Source: Vicinamibacteria bacterium
Lineage (GTDB): Bacteria > Acidobacteriota > Vicinamibacteria > Vicinamibacterales > JAENWD01
Direction of reading: 5' to 3'
NCBI GenBank assembly: GCA_963763095.1
Contig: CAVXNR010000006.1
Span: 70,125-134,124, forward strand
DNA: 64,000 nucleotides
Part shown: one piece after another, positions 403 through 30,189 of the stretch
Position numbering within the stretch: the first letter of the stretch is position 1
Layout: every line of letters starts with the position of its first letter
Translations under genes and position numbers: made by a program
Notes under the pieces: generated by a model
The model's input: the letters and a program-made list of their open reading frames with translations, nothing else
Database searches by the model: none
Told to the model about the DNA's origin: nothing

Positions 403-2874
403 TTACTGCTGCGAGAGTGCCGCCACCGGACTGACGCGTGCGGCGCGTCGTGCCGGCGCCAGGCAGGCAACGCCCGCTGTCAGCGCCAGCACGCCAGTGA
501 CGCTGATCATCACAACGGGGTCGAGAGCACCGACACCGTACAACTGCGACGCGATGAACTGGCGCAGCGCCACCGCGCCGAGGCCGCCCACGGCGAGGCC
601 CACCAGGACCAGCCCGACGCCTTCACGAAAGACCAGGCCCAGCACGCCGCGCGTGTCGCAGCCGAGCGCCATCCGGATCCCGATCTCGCGTGTGCGCTGG
701 CTCACCTGGTACGCCAGCACGCCGTAGATGCCGATCGATGCCAGCAGCAGCGCCACGAGACCGAACGCCACGGAGAGCAGCATCGGCGTCCTCCTCGACG
801 TCAACGACCGCTCCACCCGGTCAGGCATGTTGAGCACGTCCGAGAGCTGCACCTCCGGATCCAGTGCGGCCAGTGCGCGCCGGACCGCGCCGGTGACGGC
901 CGCCGGGTCTCCCGTCGTGCGGATCGCAAAGGCGACGCCGCGCTGCGCGTCCTGCGCGTAGGGGTAGTAGTAGGCGCCGATCCGGGCGTCCTCCCCCTCG
1001 ATCAGGCCCTTGAGTTTGACGGTGCCCACGACCCCGACCACCTGCAGCCACAACGAGTCTGGACCGGGTTTCGCGACTTCCTCCGGCCGCTGGGGTCGGT
1101 ACATCCGGCGGCCGATCGGATCGGCGTCGCCCCAGAACCGCTTGGCCAGCCGTTCGTCGACGATGGCGACACGCGGTGTGCCATCCGTGTCGCTCTCGGT
1201 GAAGCCCCGCCCTCGCTTGATCGGCATGCGCATCGCTTCGAAGTAGCCCGGGGTCACACGAAGCACGTTCGGCGATACAACCGACTCGCCGGGTGCCGGC
1301 ACATAGCCCTCGGGAATGATGACGCTGCTGTCGCCGTCGAGACTGAACGGCAGGAACGTGGTGACACCGGCGGCCTCGACGCCCGGCAGCGCACGGATGC
1401 GGTCCAGTGCCCGGCTGGTATAGGCGCGAACCGACGCCATCTCCGGGTAGCGGGTTTCGAGCAGCGTCGCGCGACCGGTCAGCACATGCTCCGCGGTGAA
1501 GCCCGGGTCCACCTTCAGCAACTGCTGAAAGCTTGCGAGCAGCAACCCGGCGCCCACGAGCAGCACGAACGCCAGCGCCACCTGCGCCACCACCAGGCTG
1601 CGCCGCACGGCCCGTGCGCCCCGGCCCGCAGTGCCGGACCGCCCCTCATCGCGAAGCACCGCGCTCAGATTGAGGCGCGCGATCTGCGCGGCGGGTACGG
1701 CGCCCACGATGACGCCAAGCACGGCGGCCATGCCGAGGATCGAGGCCACGACGACAGCATCGATGCGAATCTCGTAGCTCCGCGGGATCTCCGCAAACCC
1801 GGCCGACGAGAGCGCGTCGATGCTCCACGCCCCCAGGGCGAGGCCAATCGCGCCGCCGATAATCGTGAGCAATGTCGTTTCAGTGATCAGCTGCCGCGTG
1901 ACGCGCGCCTGTGCCGCGCCGAGGGCGTGGCGCGTGGCCAGCTCCCGCAGGCGTCCACTCGCGCGCACGAGTGCGAGGTTGGTGATGTTCACGCCCGCGA
2001 TCAGCAGGACGAACAGAACGCCGCCCCAGAGCAGGTGCAGGCTGGACCGCACGCTGCGGACGACATCCGCCTGGAGCGGCAGGAGCCGCGTGTGGTACCC
2101 CGCGTCCCGCAGTGCGGGGGCGAGGGCTCCCGCCCGCTGCATGTTGATGGCATTGAGCGCGTCGACACGCGCCTGCGCCTGCGCGAGCGTCGCACCCGGC
2201 GCGAGACGCGCGATCAGTTCATGGTTCTGGCTGTAGCGGGCATCTTCGGCGCGCTCCTCGGGGCTGAAGGCGAGCGGCGTCCAGATACGGACGTCCGGGT
2301 TGAGGAATCGGAAGTCGGCCGGAAGCACGCCCACCACCGTGTGAGGCCGATCGTTCAGCCGCAACTCGCGTTCGAGAATGCCGGTGACGCCGCCCGGGAG
2401 CCGTGCCGCGAAATCGTGACTCAGTAGAGCGACGTACTGACGGCCGGGCTGCCCGTCGTCGTCTGTGAGCAGGCGGCCGTGGGCCGCACGTGCGCGGAGA
2501 ACGCGAAAGAAGGACGGCGTGACCTCCATCGACGTCACGCCCTCGGCACTCTGTCCCGTGCCGACACGTAGACCACCGAACCGATAGAGAGCAACGGACT
2601 CGAAGACCTGCGTCAACGGGACCCGATCCAGATAGTTGGGGACGGACGTGCCGGCACGTTCGACGCCGGCGCCCGGAAACGCATCGTAGGCCACGATCAG
2701 GCGATCGGCCTCGGCATACGGCAGCGGTCGCAGCAGCACCGATCGCACGACGGTGAAAATCGCCGTATTCGCGCCGATACAGAGCGCCAGCGTCAGGATG
2801 GTGGTCGCGGCGAAGGCGCGATCCTTGTGGAGCAAACGCAAGGCGAAGACGAGATCCTGTCGCAGTCTGTCCAT
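403..2874 (-). CDS. ABC-transporter permease, MacB/FtsX type with duplicated permease module (ADOP-like orphan permease)
   Basis: Single 823-aa ORF. The N-terminus MDRLRQDLVFALRLLHKDRAFAATTILTLALCIGANTAIF is the canonical MacB/ADOP start. There are two FtsX-like 4-helix blocks, each after a large periplasmic domain. No ATPase gene is adjacent. Confidence 0.8.
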   Translation of the reverse strand: MDRLRQDLVFALRLLHKDRAFAATTILTLALCIGANTAIFTVVRSVLLRPLPYAEADRLIVAYDAFPGAGVERAGTSVPNYLDRVPLTQVFESVALYRFGGLRVGTGQSAEGVTSMEVTPSFFRVLRARAAHGRLLTDDDGQPGRQYVALLSHDFAARLPGGVTGILERELRLNDRPHTVVGVLPADFRFLNPDVRIWTPLAFSPEERAEDARYSQNHELIARLAPGATLAQAQARVDALNAINMQRAGALAPALRDAGYHTRLLPLQADVVRSVRSSLHLLWGGVLFVLLIAGVNITNLALVRASGRLRELATRHALGAAQARVTRQLITETTLLTIIGGAIGLALGAWSIDALSSAGFAEIPRSYEIRIDAVVVASILGMAAVLGVIVGAVPAAQIARLNLSAVLRDEGRSGTAGRGARAVRRSLVVAQVALAFVLLVGAGLLLASFQQLLKVDPGFTAEHVLTGRATLLETRYPEMASVRAYTSRALDRIRALPGVEAAGVTTFLPFSLDGDSSVIIPEGYVPAPGESVVSPNVLRVTPGYFEAMRMPIKRGRGFTESDTDGTPRVAIVDERLAKRFWGDADPIGRRMYRPQRPEEVAKPGPDSLWLQVVGVVGTVKLKGLIEGEDARIGAYYYPYAQDAQRGVAFAIRTTGDPAAVTGAVRRALAALDPEVQLSDVLNMPDRVERSLTSRRTPMLLSVAFGLVALLLASIGIYGVLAYQVSQRTREIGIRMALGCDTRGVLGLVFREGVGLVLVGLAVGGLGAVALRQFIASQLYGVGALDPVVMISVTGVLALTAGVACLAPARRAARVSPVAALSQQ

Positions 2875-2893
2875 GGCTCCCCCCGCCCGTGCC

Positions 2894-2979
2894 CCGTTAA
2901 CGGTTGACCGTTGACCGTCGACCGTCAGCCCTCAGCCTTCAGCCTTTGGCCCTTGGCCTTGGCCCTTTAGCCTTTGCTC
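2894..2979 (-). repeat. 12 tandem heptads drifting stepwise GTTGACC>GTCGACC>GTCAGCC>CTCAGCC>TTCAGCC>TTTGGCC>CTTGGCC>TTTAGCC, preceded by the palindrome CCGTTAACGG
   Basis: Read directly: phase-7 units from 2896 to 2979. The fumarate hydratase stop (TAA, 2969-2967 on the minus strand) lies inside the array. In minus-strand (mRNA) sense the units read YRARGGC/AAGGGCC. Confidence 0.85.
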
Positions 2980-4487
2980 AACGCCGCCAGCGCCTCTGCC
3001 GAAGCAGCCTCGATCTCCTTGTGCAGGCTGTTCCCATGCGCGTCCATCGTGACGATTGCGGGAAAGTCCTTCACCCGCAGGTGCCACATGGCTTCGGGCG
3101 TGCCGAACTCGAGCAGCGAGACTCCTTCCACCGCTTCAATCGTGCGGGCGTAGAACTGTGCGGCGCCGCCGACGGCGTTGAGGTAGACCGCCCCCGTCTC
3201 CCTCAGGCCTTCAAGCGTCCTGGCGCCCATTCCGCCCTTGCCGATGACGATACGGACGCCATACCGGCGCAGCACCTCCGCCTGGTACGGTTCCTCGCGG
3301 ATGCTGGTCGTCGGTCCCGCGGCCGTGATCCGCCACCGATCCCCCTCCTTCTGCACGACAGGGCCGCAGTGATACAGCGCGGCCCCGTGCAGATCGACGG
3401 GCGGTTCGTGCTTCATCAGGTGGGCATGCACGGCGTCACGCCCAGTGAACATGGGACCCGAGATCAGCACGACATCCCCCACCTTCAGGGTGCGCACGGT
3501 GGTCTCGTCGATCGGGGTCGTCAGCGCCACTTCGAGACCGGTGCGCACGAAGCCGGCCTGATCGAGCATCGGCACGATCGGGTTCACCGGATCACGGTAC
3601 AGCCAGTGCGCGATCCCGCCGCTTTTACCATCGAGCACCACTCCCAGACGGCGATAGGCCCAGCAATCGTACGCAACCGACACGAAGAAGCTGGCTGGCA
3701 GCCGATTGAGTGCGCCGACCTTGCAGGCGATGAGGGAGACCGCTCCGCCGAAACCCATCGTGCCCACGCCCAGCCGGTTGGCCGTACCCATGATGGTGGC
3801 CTCGAGCTCGGCGAGCCGCGGGTCGCTGTTCAGGTCGTCGATCGTGCGGAACAACTGCTCCTTGGCATGCAGGTACCCGGACGTGCGATCGCCCCCGATG
3901 CACACGCCGACAGCACCGGGGCTGCACCCTTTCCCCTGCGCCTGCCAGACCGCGTGGAGGATGCACTTCCGCACGCCCTCGAGCGTGCGGTCGGCCCGTC
4001 CCAGGTTCGGGAGCTCGGCGGGAAGCGAGTACTGCGCGTTCATGTTCTCGCATCCTCCGCCCTTGAGCAGCAGCTTCACCTCGATGACGTCGTGCTCCCA
4101 CTGGTGGAAGTGAATGATGGGCGTGCCGGGCCCCAGGTTGTCACCCGAGTTCTCGCCCGTGATCGAATCGACTGAGTTCGGACGCAGCAGCCCGCGCCGG
4201 GTCGCCTCGGCTACTGCTTCGCGGATCTGCTGGCGCATCCAGATCTGATTCGCGCCGACCGGCGCCTGCACCTCGAACGTCGGCATGCCGGTGTCCTGGC
4301 AGATAGGCCCCTCGTCGGCGGCCGCCTGATCGATATTCTCCGCGATGATGGTCAGTGCCTGCGCGGACCGCGTTCCGCCCGGCTCGGCCGTCATCGCCAT
4401 TCGCATCGCGGCGCGCACATCGGGCGGCAATTCGGTCGAGGTCGCAGCGATGAGTTCGAGCACGCTGGAGAAGAAGGACGGCAGCAT
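2967..4487 (-). CDS. Class I (Fe-S) fumarate hydratase / tartrate-dehydratase-type hydro-lyase, fused alpha+beta
   Basis: 506-aa product from ATG at 4487 (MLPSFFSSVLELIAATSTELPPDV..). The ORF-track ORF runs upstream to 4955 without support. An N-terminal alpha-type region and a C-terminal beta-type region (..IVIGKGGMGARTLEGLRETGAVYLNAVGGAAQ..) sit in one chain. Confidence 0.8.
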   Translation of the reverse strand: MLPSFFSSVLELIAATSTELPPDVRAAMRMAMTAEPGGTRSAQALTIIAENIDQAAADEGPICQDTGMPTFEVQAPVGANQIWMRQQIREAVAEATRRGLLRPNSVDSITGENSGDNLGPGTPIIHFHQWEHDVIEVKLLLKGGGCENMNAQYSLPAELPNLGRADRTLEGVRKCILHAVWQAQGKGCSPGAVGVCIGGDRTSGYLHAKEQLFRTIDDLNSDPRLAELEATIMGTANRLGVGTMGFGGAVSLIACKVGALNRLPASFFVSVAYDCWAYRRLGVVLDGKSGGIAHWLYRDPVNPIVPMLDQAGFVRTGLEVALTTPIDETTVRTLKVGDVVLISGPMFTGRDAVHAHLMKHEPPVDLHGAALYHCGPVVQKEGDRWRITAAGPTTSIREEPYQAEVLRRYGVRIVIGKGGMGARTLEGLRETGAVYLNAVGGAAQFYARTIEAVEGVSLLEFGTPEAMWHLRVKDFPAIVTMDAHGNSLHKEIEAASAEALAALSKG

Positions 4488-4562
4488 CAGCGCAGTATAA
4501 TTCCTGTGTCGCGTCACTGGCTCCACGTCAGGCACCCGCGTTGGACACGCCCCCCAACTGCC

Positions 4563-5963
4563 ATGCAGCGCACAGAACGGGATCCCCTCGGCGAGCGGCA
4601 AGTGCCCGCGGACGCGTACTACGGCATCCAGACGCTGCGGGCGCTCGAGAACTTTCCGATCAGCGGCTTGAAGGCCGCGCCGGATTTCGTCACGGCAACC
4701 GTCCTGGTCAAGAAGGCCGCCGCGGAAGCAAACGGGGCACTCGGGCGGCTCAAACCGGAGGTCGCTGCCGCGATTGTGCGGGCCGCCGACGAGGTGCTCG
4801 CCGGGGCCCTGCGAGACCAGTTCGTCGTGGATGTCTACCAGGCCGGCGCCGGCACGTCGCACAACATGAATGCCAATGAGGTGCTGGCGAACCGGGCGTC
4901 CGAAATCCTCGGCGGGCGGCGCGGCGAATACACGGCGGTGCACCCGAACGATCACGTCAACATGGGACAGTCGACCAACGACGTGTTTCCCACCACGACG
5001 CGGCTGGCACTGTTGATGGGGACACCACGGCTGGTGGCCGCCGCTCGGACGCTGGCCGAATCACTCGAGCGCAAGGCCGTGGAATTCGTCGACGTGCTCA
5101 AGGTCGGACGCACGCACCTGCAGGACGCGGTGCCGATCACGCTGGGCCAGGAGTTCAGCGGCTGGGCGGCGTGCGTCGCCCGCGGAGCCGATGATGTCGA
5201 GCGTTCGGCCACGCAACTGCTGGAGCTGAACCTGGGCGCCACCGCACTCGGCACGGGCTTGAATGCGGGCGATGACTACACCGGAGCGGCCATCGCCAAC
5301 CTCGCCCGATACACCGGCGCGCCGGTCGTGCCCGCCGTCAACCGCTTCCGCGTGACCCAGAGCATGGGTGACGTCGTCGCATGGTCGGGTGCCGTGCGGC
5401 GTCTGTCGGTGGAGGTTGGAAAGGTAGCGAGCGACCTGCGGCTGCTCAGCATGGGGCCGCGAGCCGGGCTTGCGGAGATCGTGCTGCCGGCCGTGCAGCC
5501 CGGGTCGTCGATCATGCCGGGCAAGGTGAACCCATCGATCCCCGAGATGGTCAACCAGGTCTGCTTCCAGGTGATCGGGTGCGATGCGACGATTACCGCG
5601 GCGGCGGAGGCGGGGCAGCTCGAGCTGAACGTCATGATGCCGGTCATCGCCTGGAATGCGCTGCACGCGTGCACCATCCTGACGCAGGCGCTCGTGGTGC
5701 TCCGGTCCCGCACGGTCGAGGGCATCTCCGCCGACCGTGATCGCTGCCGGGAGCTGCTCGATCGCAGCACCGCGATCGCGACCGCGCTCAGTCCATACAT
5801 CGGGTATGCAGCAACCGCGGAGATGGCAAAGGAGTCGGTGCGGACGGGCCGTCCCATACGCGAGCTGGTACTCGCGCGCGGCCTGCTCGAGCCGGGGCGG
5901 CTCGATGAAATTCTCGCGCCGGAGTCGATGACGCGTCCCGGGATACCGGGTGGGGGACACTGA
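4563..5963 (+). CDS. aspA: Aspartate ammonia-lyase (fumarate-lyase superfamily)
   Basis: GSSIMPGKVNP lyase signature. RDPLGERQVPADAYYGIQTLRALENF and AGQLELNVMMPVI resemble aspartase more than FumC. Start ATG 4563 chosen by family N-terminus. Divergent from the fumarate hydratase gene across a 75-bp spacer. Confidence 0.75.
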   Translation: MQRTERDPLGERQVPADAYYGIQTLRALENFPISGLKAAPDFVTATVLVKKAAAEANGALGRLKPEVAAAIVRAADEVLAGALRDQFVVDVYQAGAGTSHNMNANEVLANRASEILGGRRGEYTAVHPNDHVNMGQSTNDVFPTTTRLALLMGTPRLVAAARTLAESLERKAVEFVDVLKVGRTHLQDAVPITLGQEFSGWAACVARGADDVERSATQLLELNLGATALGTGLNAGDDYTGAAIANLARYTGAPVVPAVNRFRVTQSMGDVVAWSGAVRRLSVEVGKVASDLRLLSMGPRAGLAEIVLPAVQPGSSIMPGKVNPSIPEMVNQVCFQVIGCDATITAAAEAGQLELNVMMPVIAWNALHACTILTQALVVLRSRTVEGISADRDRCRELLDRSTAIATALSPYIGYAATAEMAKESVRTGRPIRELVLARGLLEPGRLDEILAPESMTRPGIPGGGH

Positions 5964-8664: not shown

Positions 8665-8729
8665 CGCCGACCGCCTACCGCCGATCGCGGCATCCCGCCC
8701 GCCGCCCGCCGTGACGCTATACTCCCCTG

Positions 8730-11954: not shown

Positions 11955-12659
11955 TCAGATCAGGGCTGGCAGCTCCGTGAGCGACCGGATCACCGGCACA
12001 TCCGCGCTGACGGCCGCAGCGCTCGCCACGCGGCCCGGACCGATGTCGGCCGACCTCCGCACGAGCACCCCCCGCATGCCAACCTGGACGGCGCCCTCGA
12101 TGTCGTGCGTGAGGCTGTCCCCCACCATGACCGCGTCTTCGGCCCGCACATCCAGCAGACGGAGCGCAGCCTCGAAGATGCTCGGGTGCGGCTTCATGTA
12201 CCCGTGCTCCGAGGAGGACACGGCAGCCGAGATCAACCCCTCGAGTTCGAAATGGCTCCCGAAGGAAGCCAGACACCGATGGCTGTTCGAAATCAGGCCG
12301 ATCCGCATCCCGCGTCGGGCGATCTCCCGCAGCGTGTCCGGCACGTCGTCATAGAGCTCGAAGTGGTGACTGCCGGCCCACTCGTCGTAGATCTCACGGG
12401 CGCAGGCGTCCAGCTGCGGCCCCTCGCCTCCCATGCCGGTGATGATGGCCGCGGTGTATCGATGGAAGAGGGCCGCTTCGTAAATGTGGCCGCGGGCCTC
12501 CTCCAGCACGGCCGAGGCAGCAGCCACCGCCGCCTCGAAGCGCGAGGGATTGACGTCGATGCCGTGACGGGCACAGAACTGCTGATACCCCTCGCCGCGG
12601 AACGTCGGACCAGGGTGGATGAGCGTGAAGTCGACGTCGAAGAAGACCGCGTGCGTCAC
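11955..12659 (-). CDS. HAD-superfamily hydrolase
   Basis: Motif I FFDVDFTL (DxDxT), motif with LISNS, and motif IV VGDSLTHD. Confidence 0.75.
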   Translation of the reverse strand: MTHAVFFDVDFTLIHPGPTFRGEGYQQFCARHGIDVNPSRFEAAVAAASAVLEEARGHIYEAALFHRYTAAIITGMGGEGPQLDACAREIYDEWAGSHHFELYDDVPDTLREIARRGMRIGLISNSHRCLASFGSHFELEGLISAAVSSSEHGYMKPHPSIFEAALRLLDVRAEDAVMVGDSLTHDIEGAVQVGMRGVLVRRSADIGPGRVASAAAVSADVPVIRSLTELPALI

Positions 12660-13954
12660 CGAGGTGAGGGAGCGTCGACGTGCGCCGCCGGATCGTACGG
12701 GCCGGCGATCACGACCGATGCGCGATCGGGGTGCAGGATCCGCCGTGTCGCCGCGTGCACGTCTTCGAGCGTCACGGCGTCGAGCAGCGCCGGCAGCCGC
12801 TGATCGTGGTCGTGCCCCAGCCCGAAGAACTCCGCCGTATGCAGGAACGAGGCGATTCCCGAGTTGGTTTCGAGGTTCCTCGGCATCGACCCGATCAGGT
12901 ATCGCTTGGCATCGGCCAGTTCCGAGGGCGTCACCCCGTCGCGGACGATCGTCCGGACCTCCTCGTCGATTGACGCCACCGTGCGATCCACGTTTTGCGG
13001 CGCTACGCCCGCCCGGATGACGAGCGGTCCTTCGGCCAGGTTGCCGTCGAAGCTGCTGAAGGCGTAGTACGCCATCCCCTGCCGCTCGCGGATGCTGTCG
13101 CCGAGCCGCCCGCCCAGCCCGTACTGCCCGAGGACATTGTTCATCAACGTGAGCGCGTAGTAGTCCGGATCGCGCCGTGTGACCGTGACGAACCCGTACG
13201 CCACGTCCGCCTGCGCCTTGTTCATCATGGGGAGTACCAGATGTCTGCGACCGGCGGCGGGGCCGAGCGGCGGAAGCGCAAGCGGCAGGGACCTGGGTGT
13301 GTGCCAGTCGCCGAACACCCGTTCGGCGGCAGCAATGGCACGCGGCGCGGACACGTCCCCGACGATGACCACCATGAGATGTTCGGGCGAGAACCGCGCC
13401 CGGTGGTAGGCCACCAGGTCCGCGCGCGTTGTCGCTTCCACCGTCGCCACGACGCCTTTGGTTGGCCGGCCGTAAGGGTGCCCATCCGGATACAGCAGCC
13501 CCATCAGCCCTTCGACGGCCATCGTCGCGGGGCTGTCTTCGTCCTGGCGGATGGCCGTGACGATCTCACCGCGCCGGGTGTCGACTTCGGCCGGGGGGAA
13601 CGTGGGCCGTCGCACGACGTCGCCGACGAGTCCGATCATGTCGTCGAAATCCTCGGCCAGACACGTACAGCCGAGCGTCAGCAGGTGACGTCCCACGCTC
13701 GAGTTCAGCGTCACTCCGCGGCCATCGAGCGCCTCCGCTATCGCATCGCCGCTTCGCGTCTCGGTGCCGCGATCGATCACCTTCGAGACGAAATGGGCCA
13801 GTCCCAATCGGTCGGCGGGATCGTGGGCGCTGCCGGCGCGCACGGCAACCAGCATCGTCACGGCCGCATGTGTCACGGTCTGCTGCGCCAGCACGACCGC
13901 CCCATTCGCGAGTGCGGCGCGAGTCGGCGCGAGGCCCTGAAGAAGCGTGCTCAC
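12656..13954 (-). CDS. M16-family peptidase, non-catalytic-type subunit
   Basis: M16 N- and C-domains, but the HxxEH position reads HFVSKV. GTG start at 13954 overlaps the upstream M16 stop (GTGA). Confidence 0.8.
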   Translation of the reverse strand: MSTLLQGLAPTRAALANGAVVLAQQTVTHAAVTMLVAVRAGSAHDPADRLGLAHFVSKVIDRGTETRSGDAIAEALDGRGVTLNSSVGRHLLTLGCTCLAEDFDDMIGLVGDVVRRPTFPPAEVDTRRGEIVTAIRQDEDSPATMAVEGLMGLLYPDGHPYGRPTKGVVATVEATTRADLVAYHRARFSPEHLMVVIVGDVSAPRAIAAAERVFGDWHTPRSLPLALPPLGPAAGRRHLVLPMMNKAQADVAYGFVTVTRRDPDYYALTLMNNVLGQYGLGGRLGDSIRERQGMAYYAFSSFDGNLAEGPLVIRAGVAPQNVDRTVASIDEEVRTIVRDGVTPSELADAKRYLIGSMPRNLETNSGIASFLHTAEFFGLGHDHDQRLPALLDAVTLEDVHAATRRILHPDRASVVIAGPYDPAAHVDAPSPR

Positions 13955-20571: not shown

Positions 20572-21531
20572 ATGGGACGCGTGGAGCTCGCTGTGACCGA
20601 TGAGCACGCAGGCGAGCGGCTCGACCGATTCCTCGCCACAGTGCTGCCAGGACACTCGCGCTCGCAGATCCAGCGATTGATCAAGGACGGGCCTGGTGCA
20701 GGTGGGCCCGCGCCCGGTGCGCGCCAACGCGAGCGTGCGGACGGGCGACACGGTCATCGTGGACGTCCCCGCGCCAACCGTCGCGGAACCTGCCGCCGAG
20801 GACATCCCGCTCGACATCGCCTATGAGGATCCGCACCTGATCGTGGTGAACAAGGCCGCGGGAATGGTCGTGCACCCCGCCGCCGGACACGCCAGCGGCA
20901 CGCTCGTGAACGCGCTGCTGCACCACGTCGACGATCTCAGCGGGATTGGCGGCGAGCTGCGGCCCGGCATCGTGCACAGGCTCGATCGCGGCACGTCAGG
21001 ACTGATCGTCGTGGCGAAAGCACGATCGGGCCCACGAGTCGCTCGCCAGGCAGTTCCACGATCGGGAGGTCGAGAAGGAATACCTCGCCCTGGTCTGGGG
21101 CGTCGTGCAGGCGGGACGCCGCATCGAAGCGCCGATCGGACGTGACCCTGTAAACCGCCAGAAAATGTCGGCGCGCTCGAGGCGGGCTCGCACGGCCGTG
21201 ACGCGGATCACGCGCGTCCAGCACCTGAAAGGCGTCACCCTCACGCAGATCGCGATCCACACCGGACGCACCCACCAGATCCGCGTGCACCTGAGCGGGA
21301 TCGGCCACCCGATCGTCGGCGATGCGCTCTATGGCGGATCCCGCCGGCGTATGCCAGCCGATCTCCGGCCCATTCTCCGGCTGGAACGGCCATTCCTGCA
21401 CGCCGCACGCCTTGCGTTCACGCATCCCGATCGACGGGCGCCGCCTCGAATTCACCGCCGCGCTGCCACGCGATCTGCAGACGGTGTTGGACGAGATTGT
21501 GCAACTACAGGAGGCCGCGGGCGACGGATAG
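20572..21531 (+). pseudogene. rluD: 23S rRNA pseudouridine synthase RluD-type, three +1 frameshifts
   Basis: S4 domain ([26 protein letters not shown]), catalytic [15 protein letters not shown], and C-terminus ..FLHAARLAFTHP|IDGRRLEFTAALP... Shifts at GGG 20689-20691, AAA 21017-21019 and CCC 21426-21428. Confidence 0.85.
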
Positions 21532-21547
21532 GCGGGCGTTTCCCGCC
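21531..21547 (+). terminator. Short hairpin directly after the rluD stop
   Basis: GGCGGG-cgttt-CCCGCC starts at the last base of the TAG stop. No U-tract. Confidence 0.3.
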
Positions 21548-21610
21548 TGGAGCCTGGCGCCTGGAGCCTGGAGCCCGGAGCCTGGCGCCTGGAGCCTGGA
21601 GCCTGGAGCC
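21548..21610 (+). repeat. 9 tandem heptads (6x TGGAGCC, 2x TGGCGCC, 1x CGGAGCC), with a 28-bp super-period x2
   Basis: Read directly. The array ends 9 nt before the Nudix ATG (21620). Each unit contains the SD-like GGAG. Confidence 0.9.
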
Positions 21611-21619
21611 TTCGCGAAC

Positions 21620-22175
21620 ATGCCTGAGAAACCCCACGTCCTCCACTCCCACGTCGCCTACGACGGCAAGATCTTCCAGGCTGTCGTGGAGCGCGTGCGT
21701 CTGCCCGGCCGTGACCGCGACTCGCAGGTCGAGATCGTCCGCCACGCGGGGTCGGTCGCGATTGCAGCCATGCCGTCCGATGACGCTGTGCTCCTGGTGC
21801 GGCAGTACCGGCATCCGGCCGGCGGCGTGCTGTGGGAATTGCCCGCGGGCAGCATCGATCCCGGCGAGGACGCCGAGACGGCGGCCAGGCGTGAGTGCCA
21901 CGAGGAGCTGGGGATGATTGCAGGCAGGGCCGAGCGTCTCGGTGAGGCATGGCCGCTGCCCGGCTACTGCACCGAGTACATGACGTTCTTCCGCCTGACG
22001 GACCTGCGCAGCCCAGGTGCCGGTGACGCGGCAAGCGCACCAGGACGAGGACGAGGAGATCGAGGCGCAGGTATTCACGCTGGAACAGGTTCGGGAGATG
22101 GTCCGGAGCGGCGAGATCAAGGACCTGAAGACGGCAGCCGTGCTGGCGCTGCATGTAGCGAAGGCTAAGGGCTGA
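21620..22175 (+). pseudogene. Nudix hydrolase (ADP-ribose pyrophosphatase-like), one +1 frameshift
   Basis: Nudix box GSIDPGEDAETAARRECHEELG. The C-terminus continues in the +1 frame (..QVPVTRQAHQDEDEEIEAQVFTLEQVREMVRSGEIKDLKTAAVLALHVAKAKG) after the CCC run at 22012-22014. Confidence 0.8.
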
Positions 22176-22320
22176 AGGGCCAAGGGCTGAAGGGCTAAGG
22201 GCTAAAGGAAAGTTGACAGCCGGACGCAGCCTTGTTCACGCCCGCTCAGCCTTAGCCGTTCGCCCTTAGCCCTTGGCCCTTTAGCCCTTAGCCCTTAAGC
22301 CCTTAGCCCTTTAGCCCTTA
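22160..22320. repeat. Opposed arrays of AAGGGCT-type heptads (left arm 22160-22208, right arm 22247-22320) filling the nudix-lon convergent spacer
   Basis: Read directly. The right arm is the reverse complement of the left arm. Both stop codons lie inside repeat units. Confidence 0.9.
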
Positions 22321-24750
22321 CTGCAGTGTCCCCTGGATGCTGTGCTCGCGGGGGCGGTCGGTCGAAGGCGGCGCAGGAGAGAGCGCCAGGAGGAGCACCT
22401 CGGTGATCTCCGACACGAGGTGAATCGTGATGTCGGCCCTGAGCTCGTCATTCAGGTCCTCCATTACGTTCTTCTCGTTCTGCCGTGGAAGAATCACCTC
22501 CCGTACGCCCGCCCGCCGTGCGGCCAGCACCTTCTCCTTGATGCCACCTACCGGGAGCACGCGGCCGGACAGCGTGATTTCCCCGGTCATCGCGATGTCG
22601 CCCCGCACCGGGCGGCGGGTCAACTCCGACACGAGCGCCGTCACCATCGTGACACCTGCCGACGGGCCGTCTTTCGGGATGGCGCCCGAGGGCACATGGA
22701 AGTGGACCTCGGCGTTCCTGTAGAAGTCCGCATCGACGCCGTACTCACCGGCATGCGCGCGGAACCAGGAGAGCGCGGTCCGCGCGGACTCCTTCATCAC
22801 GTCGCCGAGCGAGCCAGTCAGGGTCAGCGTTCCGGTTCCTGCCATCCGCGACGCTTCGATGAACAGCACCTCGCCCCCGGCCGGTGTCCAGGCGAGACCG
22901 ATAGCCACGCCAGGGTGCTTCGTGCGCTCCTCCATCTCTTCGTCCAGAAAGCGCGGCGCACCGAGCATCGCCACGACGACGTCCGGCGTGACGGCAAGGG
23001 CTGTTTCATCGCCTTCTGCCCGCCGGCGCGCGGCTTTCCGGCAGATCGAGCCGATCTCGCGTTCGAGATTCCTGACGCCCGCCTCGCGCGTGTACCCGCG
23101 GATCATGCACCGGAGCGCCGCGTCTGAAAACGTCAGCTGCTCACCCGTCAGGCCGTGGTTCGCGACCTGCTTCTCGACGAGGTGCTCGCACGCAATCTTC
23201 AGCTTCTCCTCTTCCGTGTATCCGGGGAGCTCGAGCACCTCCATGCGATCGCGCAGGGCAGGCGGCACGGGATCCAGGACATTCGCGGTCGTGATAAAGA
23301 GAACCTCCGCCAGGTCGAACGGGACGTCGAGGTAGTGATCGCGGAACGTGTCGTTCTGCTCCGGGTCCAGCACCTCGAGCAGCGCCGAGCTCGGGTCGCC
23401 GCGAAAGTCGGAGCCCAGTTTGTCGATCTCATCCAGGATGAACACCGGATTTTTCGACTCGGCGCGCCGCAGCCCCTGGATGACCTGCCCCGGCAGGGCA
23501 CCGATGTAGGTCCGGCGATGCCCGCGAATTTCGGCCTCATCCCGCATGCCGCCAAGCGACACGCGGACGAACTTCCGGTCGAGCGACGTCGCGATCGATT
23601 TCGCCAGCGAGGTCTTCCCCACGCCGGGGGGGCCGACGAAACAGAGGATCGGTCCCTTCACGTCGGGATTGAGCTTCCGGACGGCGAGGTACTCGAGGAT
23701 CCGGTCCTTCGCCTTCTCCAGTCCGGAATGTTCGTCGTCCAGGATCCGTTTGGTCCGCGCGAGATCGATCGTCTCTTCCGTGCGCTTTTCCCAAGGCAGT
23801 GCGACCAGCCAGTCGATGTAGGTGCGTGAGACGGTGTATTCGGCAGCGGCGACGGGCATGCGCGCCAGCCGCTCGAGCTCACGAAGCGCCTCTTTCAGCA
23901 CGAGCTCAGGCATCTGCGCGGCTTCGATCTTCTCCCGGAGCTCATCGATCTCCTTCGTCTGGTCGTCGCCCTCGCCGAGCTCCTTCTGGATCGCCTTCAT
24001 CTGCTCGCGCAGGAAGTACTCGCGCTGGTTCTTGCCGACCTCCGATTGCACCTGAGACTGAATCTTGGACCCGAGCTCCAGGACCTCGAGCTCCTTGATC
24101 AGGATCCGGTTCAGCGTATCCATGCGGGCGCGGACGTCGAGCGTTTCCAGCACCTCCTGCTTCACCGGCGTGGCGATGGTGCTCAGGCTTGACGCGATGA
24201 AGTCGGCCAGACGTCCCGGCTCCGTGATGTTGAGCGCCAGGGTCTGAAGGTCGTCAGAGAGCAGCGGCGACAGCGAGACGACCTTCTGGAAGTTGCTCTT
24301 GATGTTGCGCTGCAGCGCATCGATCTCCAGACGGTCATCGTCGCTCAGCTCGTCTGGCGTAGCGCTCACCTGGGCGCGGAGGTACGGGCGCACGGCCACG
24401 ATGTCGTCGAGGCGGATGCGGGCGAGCCCCTGGACAATCAGGCGCAGACTGCCGTCCGGGAGCCGGAACATCTTGTGGATGTGCGTGGCCGTGCCAATCG
24501 GGTACAGGTCCTCCTTGTGCGGTTCGTCGAGCGCGGCGTCGCGCTGGGTGAACACACCGATGACCTTGCTTGCATTGATGGCCTCGTCGATCAGCCGCAC
24601 GGAGCTCTCGCGCGCAACCGCCAGCGGCATGAACGAGTTGGGGAACAGCACCGTGTCGCGCAGCGGCAACAGCGGGAGCTCAGGCGGTATCGAGGGCGGC
24701 CGTTCGCCCGAGACCTCTTCGAGAATCGGGGTCTCGTCCTGATCGCCCAT
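22318..24750 (-). CDS. lon: ATP-dependent Lon protease
   Basis: 810 aa from ATG 24750. LON N-domain, Walker A GPPGVGKTS, and protease motif PKDGPSAGVTM. Confidence 0.95.
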   Translation of the reverse strand: MGDQDETPILEEVSGERPPSIPPELPLLPLRDTVLFPNSFMPLAVARESSVRLIDEAINASKVIGVFTQRDAALDEPHKEDLYPIGTATHIHKMFRLPDGSLRLIVQGLARIRLDDIVAVRPYLRAQVSATPDELSDDDRLEIDALQRNIKSNFQKVVSLSPLLSDDLQTLALNITEPGRLADFIASSLSTIATPVKQEVLETLDVRARMDTLNRILIKELEVLELGSKIQSQVQSEVGKNQREYFLREQMKAIQKELGEGDDQTKEIDELREKIEAAQMPELVLKEALRELERLARMPVAAAEYTVSRTYIDWLVALPWEKRTEETIDLARTKRILDDEHSGLEKAKDRILEYLAVRKLNPDVKGPILCFVGPPGVGKTSLAKSIATSLDRKFVRVSLGGMRDEAEIRGHRRTYIGALPGQVIQGLRRAESKNPVFILDEIDKLGSDFRGDPSSALLEVLDPEQNDTFRDHYLDVPFDLAEVLFITTANVLDPVPPALRDRMEVLELPGYTEEEKLKIACEHLVEKQVANHGLTGEQLTFSDAALRCMIRGYTREAGVRNLEREIGSICRKAARRRAEGDETALAVTPDVVVAMLGAPRFLDEEMEERTKHPGVAIGLAWTPAGGEVLFIEASRMAGTGTLTLTGSLGDVMKESARTALSWFRAHAGEYGVDADFYRNAEVHFHVPSGAIPKDGPSAGVTMVTALVSELTRRPVRGDIAMTGEITLSGRVLPVGGIKEKVLAARRAGVREVILPRQNEKNVMEDLNDELRADITIHLVSEITEVLLLALSPAPPSTDRPREHSIQGTLQ

Positions 24751-24857
24751 GGAGCGATCCTCCTTAGCGGACCAGTCGTGGGGGTCCGGGGAAACAGCCG
24801 GTGGGGGAGGCACAGGCCCCACCCACCGGCGGAGCCTGCTTCGTCGGTGCGCGCAAA

Positions 24858-27939: not shown

Positions 27940-27950
27940 TCTCGATCGGG

Positions 27951-28032
27951 GCGCTTCGGCCCCGGTCCTACACTGCAGGCCCTTCGGCCCTGGTCCTTCA
28001 CTGCAGGCACCTATTCGCTTCGGCCCACTTCC
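27951..28032 (-). repeat. 28-bp tandem repeat x2 plus a partial third unit (CTTCGGCCC core x3) filling the ridA-relA convergent spacer
   Basis: Unit 1 at 27951-27978 is GCGCTTCGGCCCCGGTCCTACACTGCAG. Unit 2 at 27979-28006 is GCCCTTCGGCCCTGGTCCTTCACTGCAG. A partial unit runs to the relA stop at 28033-28035. Confidence 0.85.
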
Positions 28033-30189
28033 TCACCTGACGGCACGTTCGACGTCTAGGACGCCGGCGATTGCCCGCAGCGACTTCATGACTTTCTCGA
28101 GGTGCTTCAGGTCGTGGATTTCGACTGTCATGTCGATGCGCCCGCGATGGTCGGCGTCCGTGGTGGCCTCGACGCTGGTGATATTGGTGTTGATGTCGGC
28201 GACCTTCGAGCTGACGTCCGCCAGGATCCCCTTCCGATCCTCCACCTGCATGGTCAGTCGCACCGTGTAGCGCGACACGTCGACGGCGGTGTCCCACTCG
28301 ACGTCGATCCGGCGCTCGGGATCGTAGTGAAGATTGATCACGTTCGGACAGCGGGCGGAGTGGACCGACACACCCTTGCCGCGACTGATGTAGCCGACGA
28401 TCTTCTCGCCCCGAATCGGGTTGCAGCACCGGGCCCTGAATACCATCAGGCCGTCGACGCCGCTCACCTTGATGCGGTCTTCACCGCTGCCGAGCACTCG
28501 CCGGACAGCCGAGACGACCTTTCCTTCGGGGGGACGTTCCTGCAGCTGATCCTGCGGGACGAGCTTGCTGAGCACCAGACGTGCGGCGAGCTTCCCATAC
28601 CCGATGGAGGCGAGGAGTTCCTCCGTTCTTCCGCCGCCGTACTCCTCGGCGACCTTCACCATCGCCTCGCTCTCGAGCAGCGTCTTCATGTTCAGGCCGA
28701 ACCGACGTGCCTCCTTCTCGAAGATGCGGCGCCCCAGCTCTATGCTGCGGGCCTTCTCCTCCGCCTGGACGAAATGCCGGATTTTGTTCCGTGCGCGCGC
28801 GGTAACCACGAAACTCAGCCAGTCGCGGCTGGGCGTGTGGGTCGCCTGCGTGATGATCTCGACGATGTCGCCGTTCTTCAGACGGGAGCGGAGCGGCACC
28901 ATCTTTCCGTTCACGCGGGCGCTGACGCAGCGGTGGCCCACATCCGTGTGGATGGCGTACGCGAAGTCGACGGGCGTGGCGCCGCGGGGGAGCGCCTTGA
29001 CCTCCCCCTTGGGGGTGAACGTGTAGACCTCCTCGGGGTAGAGATCCAGCTTCAGATCCTGGATGAACTCCTGCGCGTCGCGGACCTCCTGCTGCCATTC
29101 GAGGAGTTGCCGCATCCACTGGAAATACCGCTCGTCCCGCTCATCGCCGACGCGGCCCTCCTTGTATTTCCAGTGCGCGGCGATCCCCTCCTCCGCCTGG
29201 TTGTGCATCTCCAGCGTGCGGATCTGCACCTCGAACGGCGTGCCTTGATCGCTGATCACCGACGTGTGCAGCGACTGGTAGCCGTTCGGCCGCGCCATGG
29301 CGATGAAGTCCTTGATGCGGCCGGGAATCGGCGACCACAGGTTGTGGATGATGCCAAGCACCGCGTAGCAGTCGCGCACAGAAGTCGTGAGGACGCGAAG
29401 GGCGGCGAAGTCGTAAACCTGCTCGAGCTCGATCTTCTGCTTCTTGAGCTTCTGGGCGATGCTGTACAGGCGTTTCGTGCGGGCTTCGATCCGCACGATC
29501 GGCACCTGCGCGTCCTCGAGCTTCGTCGCGAGCGTACGCTTGAGCTCCTCGAGCGTGGCCTCGGTCGTCTTTCGGCGCGCTTCCACGCGCGTGCGCAAGG
29601 ACTCGTAGTACTTGGGCTCGAGGTACTTGAACGACAGCTCCTCCAGCTCGTTCTTGACCTTGCTCATCCCGAGCCGGTTCGCGATGGGCGCGTAGATGTC
29701 GAGCGTCTCCTGGGCAATCTTCACGCGCCGCTCTTCCGGCAGGTGGTGCAGCGTCCGCATGTTGTGGACGCGATCGGCGAGCTTCACGAGGATGACGCGG
29801 ATGTCATCCACCATCGCCAGCAGCATCTTCCGGAAGTTTTCGGCCTGCCGCTGCTCGCTGGACTGGAACGGGATGGCGCCAATCTTGGTGACGCCCTCGA
29901 CGACGTGGGCCACCTCCGGCCCGAATCGCTCGGCGATGACGTCGATGGTGGTCAGCGTGTCCTCGACCACGTCGTGGAGGAGTCCTGCGGCAATCGCGAC
30001 AACGTCGAGCTTCAGGTCGGCCAGGAAATCGGCCACCTCGAGCGGATGAACCATGTACGGCTCACCGGAATGGCGGACCTGCCCCTTGTGCTCGAAGGCG
30101 GAGAAGACGTACGCCCCGCGCAGCAGCTCGAGATCGGCATCCGGGCTGTACGAGCGAACCTTCTCGAGGAGATCCTCGAAGCGAATCAT
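28033..30189 (-). CDS. relA: Bifunctional (p)ppGpp synthetase/hydrolase (RelA/SpoT homologue)
   Basis: 718 aa. HD hydrolase domain (HDVVEDT), RelA/SpoT synthetase domain, and TGS and ACT regions. Confidence 0.95.
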   Translation of the reverse strand: MIRFEDLLEKVRSYSPDADLELLRGAYVFSAFEHKGQVRHSGEPYMVHPLEVADFLADLKLDVVAIAAGLLHDVVEDTLTTIDVIAERFGPEVAHVVEGVTKIGAIPFQSSEQRQAENFRKMLLAMVDDIRVILVKLADRVHNMRTLHHLPEERRVKIAQETLDIYAPIANRLGMSKVKNELEELSFKYLEPKYYESLRTRVEARRKTTEATLEELKRTLATKLEDAQVPIVRIEARTKRLYSIAQKLKKQKIELEQVYDFAALRVLTTSVRDCYAVLGIIHNLWSPIPGRIKDFIAMARPNGYQSLHTSVISDQGTPFEVQIRTLEMHNQAEEGIAAHWKYKEGRVGDERDERYFQWMRQLLEWQQEVRDAQEFIQDLKLDLYPEEVYTFTPKGEVKALPRGATPVDFAYAIHTDVGHRCVSARVNGKMVPLRSRLKNGDIVEIITQATHTPSRDWLSFVVTARARNKIRHFVQAEEKARSIELGRRIFEKEARRFGLNMKTLLESEAMVKVAEEYGGGRTEELLASIGYGKLAARLVLSKLVPQDQLQERPPEGKVVSAVRRVLGSGEDRIKVSGVDGLMVFRARCCNPIRGEKIVGYISRGKGVSVHSARCPNVINLHYDPERRIDVEWDTAVDVSRYTVRLTMQVEDRKGILADVSSKVADINTNITSVEATTDADHRGRIDMTVEIHDLKHLEKVMKSLRAIAGVLDVERAVR

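Follow-up and report, generated by a model that had tools for sequence, protein, structure and literature searches.

What kind of repeat occupies the spacer where the nudix and lon genes of a Vicinamibacteria bacterium (phylum Acidobacteriota) converge, and is it explained by structure, by sequence, or by slippage alone? The spacer lies in a stretch of 64,000 nucleotides (contig CAVXNR010000006.1, positions 70,125 to 134,124; the whole stretch is called the window), and is occupied by two inverted arrays of the heptad AAGGGCY. The answer favored here, with a probability of roughly 0.6, is that a heptad repeat prone to slippage has become part of a conserved hairpin marking the transcript ends of both genes. 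On the layout of its units the element would be one of the G-rich heptameric intergenic repeats, set in convergent inverted pairs, reported in Xanthomonas and Nostoc. The kind of element is already known; the unit AAGGGCY and the phylum Acidobacteriota are new.

Two opposed arrays and their predicted hairpin

The spacer and the genes at its sides are made of the following parts (TRF, Tandem Repeats Finder; G4, G-quadruplex).

21620..22175, + strand: Nudix hydrolase gene, ATG at 21620; Pfam NUDIX; start and end lie in different frames
22160..22208, + strand: G-rich arm in nudix sense; about 6.5 AAGGGCY-type heptads with 5 GGG tracts; TRF score 78, match to the G4 regular expression
22209..22247, no strand: unique central segment of 39 nt, the loop of the hairpin, as defined by spacer comparison and folds
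22248..22320, - strand: G-rich arm in lon sense; about 10 heptads with 8 GGG tracts, the lon stop included; TRF score 103
22320-22318, - strand: lon stop TAA, contained in the first repeat unit (CAG TAA GGGCT...)
22318..24822, - strand: lon (ATP-dependent protease La); Pfam Lon_C, LON_substr_bdg, AAA

Both arms consist of 7-nt units joined head to tail, and are recognized by TRF with periods of 7 and 15, the latter being 7+8. The left arm, read on the + strand, is GAAGGCT AAGGGCT GAAGGGCC AAGGGCT GAAGGGCT AAGGGCT AAAGG, in which 7-mers and 8-mers alternate with a period of 15. The right arm is C-rich on the + strand, where it reads as the reverse complement of about ten units. The units of both arms had been transcribed correctly in the earlier note, as had the inverse relation of the right arm to units of the left type; its start is at 22248, not at 22247, and the loop, given as about 38 nt, measures 39. 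The window contains 18 copies of the heptad AAGGGCT (4.0 expected), a number that none of 100 shuffles reached; 10 of the 18 fall in the nudix-lon spacer.

The 8-mer variants differ by arm. On the nudix side they have the form GAAGGGCY, with an extra G, on the lon side A/T-AAGGGCT, with an extra A or T. Since each arm has 8-mer variants and a 15-nt (7+8) sub-period of its own, the arms expand independently, rather than being copied from each other. Arm-to-arm copying by template switching was considered as a source of the second arm, and is not favored for the same difference in 8-mer variants.

The RNA of the 186-nt region folds at -98 kcal/mol (z-score -6.6) when read from the + strand, and at -107.5 kcal/mol (z-score -7.2) when read from the - strand. 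In the folds the paired arms form an imperfect stem of about 50 bp, in multiple registers, closed by the 39-nt loop. The minimum free energy (MFE) structure makes up at most 0.004 of the ensemble, as expected if many pairing registers are possible. The folds agree with the view, advanced when the locus was first read, that the arms of the two convergent genes pair in many registers, and the hairpin so formed is very stable. It had been called bidirectional and terminator-like; it is not a canonical intrinsic terminator, no site with a T tract being found. The only U run is the UU(U) within each unit of the 3' arm. A promoter scan of the spacer region returned nothing, and no Rfam family was matched; sub-threshold matches to the mir-4788 hairpin were treated as spurious.

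The feature under selection would be the hairpin, at the 3' ends that the two transcripts share. By analogy with repetitive extragenic palindromic (REP) elements, it may limit read-through into the opposing gene, protect mRNA 3' ends, or both. The heptad make-up would be a mutational overlay, by which the length of the stem is retuned. With the G-rich arm 5' on either strand, the part of the hairpin transcribed last is in both cases a pyrimidine-rich CCCUU(U) arm. As a speculation, the RNA:DNA hybrid of this arm, which should be weak, may aid release of the RNA, replacing a long U tract.

The lon-nudix spacer in related strains

Orthologous loci were collected as a graded series by exact-protein look-ups; loci L001, L119-L122, L276 and L277 are ENA and JGI records. 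Homologues of Lon at 83-85% identity carry the label Vicinamibacterales, and a metagenome-assembled genome (MAG) of that order matches at 76% of nucleotides over 1.3 kb; the window was assigned to Vicinamibacterales on these grounds. The same element was found in seven related assemblies. With the window, eight orthologous spacers carry it, with 3-14 units per arm. The series is given with the identity of Lon to that of the window.

Window: Lon is the query; lon-side 10 units, nudix-side 6
L001: Lon 100%; lon-side 6 units, nudix-side 4
L119: Lon 100%; lon-side 7 units, nudix-side 4
L120: Lon 99%; lon-side 13 units, nudix-side 9
L121: Lon 97%; lon-side 14 units, nudix-side 4
L276: Lon 98%; lon-side about 5 units, nudix-side about 5
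L122: Lon 92%; lon-side 6 units, nudix-side 6
L277: Lon 91%; lon-side about 6 units, nudix-side about 3
L278: Lon 87%; relics only, on both sides
L123: Lon 89%; no heptads on either side
L124: Lon 84%; no heptads on either side
L125: Lon 83%; no heptads on either side

All relatives that carry heptads have the arms in the same order, with lengths differing by whole units, and in close strains the central loop is near-identical while the arms vary. Over 15 kb the window and L001 share 98.2% identity; the six indels of at least 4 nt all reside in three repeat-bearing spacers, those in the two lon-nudix arms measuring 16 and 30 nt. Between strains that are nearly identical, arrays differ by the gain and loss of whole units, which is what replication slippage would produce. 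The earlier statement that the repeats point to a role "rather than random slippage" was therefore too strong, this variation being of the slippage type.

At the same spacer, heptads are replaced in L123 by a unique hairpin of -39 kcal/mol (z-score about -7), and in L125 by another of -31 to -33 kcal/mol (z-score about -3). In L124 a short inverted GGGGCTGA...TCAGCCCC was spotted between lon and nudix, by eye only. The heptad hairpin sits where more distant relatives have an ordinary unique GC-rich hairpin. L124 also carries a gene of the histone-deacetylase family between lon and nudix (12577-13500); the convergent lon-nudix pair is thus not universal in the order. In L122 a transposase of the IS481 family (rve domain; 2256-3413) resides upstream of relA, in place of the kinase and CsgG-like genes of other strains.

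The stop codons of the two genes are related to the arrays in different ways. The lon TAA is inside a repeat unit, as had been noticed. The same had been said of the Nudix stop, and is true solely in the C-terminal frame of this assembly, where the gene ends at the TGA 22173-22175. Alignment with four relatives reveals two 1-nt insertions in the window gene, near 22030 and 22153. In all four relatives the protein ends in VLALL, at a TAG equivalent to 22156-22158 which abuts the first degenerate unit. The RluA-type pseudouridine synthase gene at 20696-21531 is likewise split into two overlapping open reading frames (ORFs), and window and L001 are separated by 34 gaps of 1-3 nt over the 15 kb compared. 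The breaks in nudix and in the pseudouridine synthase gene, and these gaps, are probably indel errors of long-read assembly, not marks of pseudogenes. The longest lon ORF encodes 834 aa, against 810-811 aa in database homologues.

Heptad arrays in other spacers and other genomes

In the window, with its 64 kb and flanks, AAGGGCY-type arrays mark two spacers and other heptads two or three more. The sites, and the genes which adjoin two of them, are listed.

2894..2976, - strand: composite heptad array, from inside the fumarate hydratase stop (TAA 2969-2967) to before the start of a MacB/FtsX permease gene
2967-4955, - strand: class I fumarate hydratase (Pfam)
21545..21611, + strand: (GCCTGGA) x9.6 array, from the pseudouridine synthase stop to the nudix ATG; TRF score 113
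27940..28032, no strand: ridA-relA convergent spacer; 28-nt repeat x2 of small GGCC hairpins, with a loose likeness to heptads
28033-30189, - strand: RelA/SpoT (Pfam)

The units of the 2894-2976 array drift stepwise (AAAGGCT, AAGGGCC, GAAGGCT, GAGGGCT, GACGGTC, AACGGTC, AACCGTT). The same core had been said to recur after the fumarate hydratase and relA stops. This is correct for fumarate hydratase, whose TAA is found in a sense AAAGGCT/AAAGGGCC array, and weak for relA, as the ridA-relA spacer holds one GAAGGGCC and one CAGGGCC only. Among relatives which keep ridA beside relA, this spacer measures 20-135 nt.

Immediately upstream of the nudix ATG is the GCCTGGA array, in every unit of which a GGAG core resembles a Shine-Dalgarno sequence. 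L001, L119 and L121 carry at this place an opposed TCCAGGC / GCCTGGA pair around a spacer of about 60 nt (11402-11637 in L001); compared with them, one arm has been lost from the window and the other has grown. An opposed ATGAAGG / CATCCTC pair was found in L122. Degenerate C-rich heptads (CGCCGAC-like, 73% matches) are present at 8665-8711, between the stop of a phosphomethylpyrimidine kinase gene (ThiD family) and moaE. The related Vicinamibacteria MAG MFD00392 has at least 7 AAGGGCY-type arrays, 5 of which reside in one 8-kb locus (L002). In the clade and all fetched loci taken together, 7 is the commonest tandem-repeat period (198 of the 423 arrays with at least three copies), and about half of these 198 arrays are not made of AAGGGCY.

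Since equivalent arrays or opposed pairs are built from GCCTGGA/TCCAGGC, CCGTTGA and ATGAAGG, GGG tracts are not the common factor. What the arrays share is heptad periodicity and the inverted-pair architecture. The G4 motif, (G3N1-7)x3 G3, does match both arms of the lon-nudix spacer, and the 5 nudix-sense and 8 lon-sense tracts had been counted correctly as fitting it. When ViennaRNA was run with G-quadruplexes enabled, each arm alone was folded by canonical GGCC self-pairing (-15.8 and -23.9 kcal/mol), and no G4 appeared in any MFE structure, of a single arm or of the full spacer, in which the inter-arm hairpin formed instead.

A scan for three AAGGGCY units in one genome per species returned more than 117 stretches among the matches listed; about 9 chance matches were estimated from pattern degeneracy and database size. 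Matches include several Vicinamibacteria and other Acidobacteriota, Thiohalocapsa (at least 7 loci), Desulfoluna (at least 5 loci), Phycisphaeraceae and Chromatiaceae. Inverted heptad pairs in the fetched loci number 123. Of these, 115 have the G-rich arm 5' on both strands; the order is opposite in 3 and unclear in 5. The bias in arm order spans many different units. Plain inverted repeats in the window, looked at for the same rule, included few intergenic cases. One Phycisphaeraceae MAG (L061) features an inverted (AGGGTTT)n / (ACCCTAC)n pair at 5188-5259 and 5439-5499, in which the plant-telomere-type heptad TTTAGGG serves as an internal hairpin-forming repeat.

The counts that follow, on spacer type and orientation, are among the matches listed. 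Arrays reside in 16 convergent spacers versus 1 divergent, according to a crude caller based on ORFs and G+C at third codon positions (GC3). The start of sense arrays coincides with the stop codon (median -1 nt); antisense arrays lie about 62 nt away from it. A bias to sense orientation was suggested by a crude count of 79:38, and was rejected as an artefact because arrays in convergent spacers count as sense by construction; the ratio is 34:27 in co-directional spacers alone, and 13:12 there with stricter ORFs. The earlier note had the repeats "always in sense orientation". This is uninformative in a convergent spacer, where any array is sense to one gene, and elsewhere the G strand is sense in 13 cases and antisense in 12. 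The informative features are arm order and position, not sense orientation.

AAGGGCY was also considered as a unit special in itself. In IMG/VR, stretches of three perfect units number 11, versus 9, 26 and 104 for three composition-matched controls; AAGGGCY does not stand out among these, and a sequence-specific explanation was rejected. The control found 104 times, AGGCAGY, is about tenfold commoner than AAGGGCY in IMG/VR viral contigs (L146-L225), where its arrays often form close inverted pairs with the G-rich arm first.

Known repeats and competing explanations

Heptamer repeats with the unit GGGAATC in Xanthomonas, where coding GC is about 65%, and GGGGAYT in Nostoc were described by Rehm et al. 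2015 (PMC4692102). They are biased to intergenic DNA and lie on the coding strand with the stop codon no more than 50 bp away, overlap with the stop included, nearer to the 5' neighbour. Inverted pairs in convergent orientation number 70 in Xcc and 75 in Xac, and the repeats were assigned to convergent spacers at 16%, versus 7-8% for divergent ones. From Xcc to Xac, location and type (single or pair) are kept, while length varies. Formation of G4 by these heptads was shown by circular dichroism (CD), their function was not established, and hairpin and G4 would compete in inverted pairs according to the authors, who in their introduction tie longer repeat runs to large genomes with >60% G+C (PMC4692102). 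The earlier note had likened the arrays to heptamer repeat families, correctly, and had known of no equivalent in a high-GC lineage; the latter does not stand, G-rich heptads with inverted convergent pairs having already been published for Xanthomonas (PMC4692102).

The lon-nudix element resembles this class in many respects. Its arms are tandem 7-nt units with a G3 tract, at least four in number; the lon TAA lies inside a unit, and the Nudix stop inside the array in the window or abutting it in relatives; the pair is inverted and convergent, a G-rich arm on the + strand being followed by a G-rich arm on the - strand. Close relatives have the same type at the same locus, with varying length and sequence, the genome is rich in G+C, and convergent spacers outnumber divergent ones. 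Further points in common are an excess in non-coding DNA and a place nearer to the 5' neighbour. It differs in the unit, AAGGGCY, in the acidobacterial host, and in the presence of G3-less heptad families alongside; moreover its arms have up to 10-14 units, and 4 units do not seem to be preferred. The literature search returned no paper with AAGGGCT or AAGGGCC tandem strings, and none linking heptamer repeats with Acidobacteria.

Other heptamers have been reported. As summarised in PMC4679880, Mrazek et al. 2007 attributed the excess of heptamers to polymerase slippage, and the ten genomes richest in 5-11 nt repeats in their survey included Burkholderia, Actinobacteria and Xanthomonas. The heptanucleotide long simple sequence repeats of that survey, as summarised in PMC4679880 and PMC4692102, share with the present arrays the dominant period of 7, large high-GC genomes, exclusion from coding sequence and an origin by slippage; the work is summarised as a statistical survey, without inverted-pair hairpin architecture or the Vicinamibacterales lineage. 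TAACTGA repeats of Beggiatoaceae, cyanobacteria and Bacteroidetes give stops in all three frames when read forward (MacGregor 2015, PMC4679880). They are AT-rich direct repeats, found mostly just upstream of starts, with one indirect repeat reported (PMC4679880). Like the arrays described here, TAACTGA and the short tandemly repeated repetitive (STRR) sequences are intergenic tandem heptamers with rules of orientation or position, and TAACTGA can overlap an upstream stop (PMC4679880). The present arrays are not cyanobacterial STRR, the unit being AAGGGCY and the host a member of Vicinamibacterales, not a heterocystous cyanobacterium. The consensus units of STRR sequences differ from AAGGGCY.

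Each REP is a copy of a consensus about 35 nt long, and REP-associated tyrosine transposases (RAYT) are the presumed agents of its mobility. An E. coli REP was shown to be a partial terminator as well as a stabiliser of mRNA, and where REPs separate convergent genes a correlation with higher expression of the two was reported (2026 preprint, bioRxiv 10.64898/2026.03.23.713779). REPs and bacterial interspersed mosaic elements (BIMEs), like the heptad pairs, are imperfect palindromes in 3' untranslated regions (UTRs) or between convergent genes, at locations which vary among strains (10.64898/2026.03.23.713779). Unlike them, the spacer arrays grow in place as tandem heptads, the loop is locus-specific and orthologous, and neighbouring spacers feature other units. 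The element was not assigned to REPs or BIMEs: no Rfam family matched, and no genome-wide search for RAYT was made.

The arrays might be a neutral by-product, slippage junk in unconstrained spacers, in which neither the hairpin nor the position at gene ends has a function. This is unlikely, and has several observations on its side. Unit number varies among strains with Lon 97-100% identical, arrays are absent at Lon identities of 89% or less, many unrelated units exist, AAGGGCY itself is not special in IMG/VR (11 stretches versus 9, 26 and 104), and slippage is the origin ascribed to heptamer excess by Mrazek, as summarised in PMC4679880. Neutral slippage does not predict that both arms carry the same unit in inverted form, that the G-rich arm comes first by 115 to 3, that convergent spacers exceed divergent ones by 16 to 1 among the matches listed, or that a hairpin persists at this spacer when devoid of heptads. 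A number of points weigh against the favored reading too, that of a slippage-prone repeat within a conserved transcript-end hairpin. The spread in unit number and the absence of heptads at Lon identities of 89% or less fit neutral drift of the repeat part as well as they fit function. Intrinsic terminators have stems of 5-14 bp and loops of 3-8 nt; like bidirectional intrinsic terminators, the spacer element offers both convergent genes one GC-rich hairpin, usable from either strand, but its stem of about 50 bp and loop of 39 nt are far from the canonical geometry, it lacks a U/A tract on either side, and a terminator scan of 21400-22600 found no site with a T tract. The cross-genome scan is an incomplete sample, and the gene context of its 117 loci comes from the crude ORF/GC3 caller.

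A G-quadruplex element, in which the sense GGG tracts would form G4 in the RNA or in non-template DNA and so make transcription pause or stop, or regulate the 3' UTR, is distinctly improbable. Both arms match the G3N1-7 x4 pattern, sense arrays adjoin stop codons, and other G-rich heptads form K+-dependent G4 by CD, with a preference for 4 units (PMC4692102). The present arms have 3-14 units, not kept near 4; ViennaRNA predicts canonical pairing or the inter-arm hairpin, and never G4; the same genome and clade build arrays or opposed pairs from the GGG-less GCCTGGA, CCGTTGA and ATGAAGG; G-rich-arm-first order holds as well for units with GG only, as AGGCAGY; and in co-directional spacers the G strand is sense about as often as antisense (13 versus 12 among the matches listed). 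Spread of a mobile or copied unit, comparable to a miniature inverted-repeat transposable element or a REP, by a transposase such as RAYT or by recombination rather than by growth in place, would explain why the same heptad is found in many spacers of many phyla and why REP elements are placed similarly at gene ends. It is very improbable, as loop and flanks are orthologous and conserved with unit number alone changing, the sequence has neither terminal inverted repeats beyond the arrays nor a target-site duplication, neighbouring spacers use different units, and no transposase adjoins the spacer, the IS481-family gene of L122 being about 9 kb away. The single-base indels which break the window nudix and pseudouridine synthase genes could make the arrays themselves suspect as products of long-read metagenome assembly. 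The chance of this is negligible, and it is excluded because seven other related ENA and JGI contigs carry the same arrays, in the same arm order and with whole-unit differences.

Inverted heptad hairpins with the G-rich arm first have been seen in MAGs of Acidobacteriota, Gammaproteobacteria, Planctomycetota and Desulfobacterota, and in IMG/VR viral contigs. Such hairpins could be widespread bidirectional transcript-end elements free of a U tract, in which slippage retunes stem length and provides an evolvable dial of read-through; in this general form the proposal is tentative and quite unlikely. Alternatively, the strict order of the arms may be the trace of a transcription-coupled or fold-back mechanism by which the second arm is generated.

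Heptad arrays call for care in annotation, as they can supply or shift stop codons and confound long-read assemblies. In many large high-GC genomes heptanucleotide repeats outnumber all other long simple repeats, and the lon-nudix locus offers a natural series in one soil lineage, from a plain hairpin to arms of 3-14 heptads. This series, from plain to heptad hairpin, and the cross-phylum rule of arm order are the residual novelty. Together they make it testable, for heptad repeats, whether structure, sequence or just slippage is at work.

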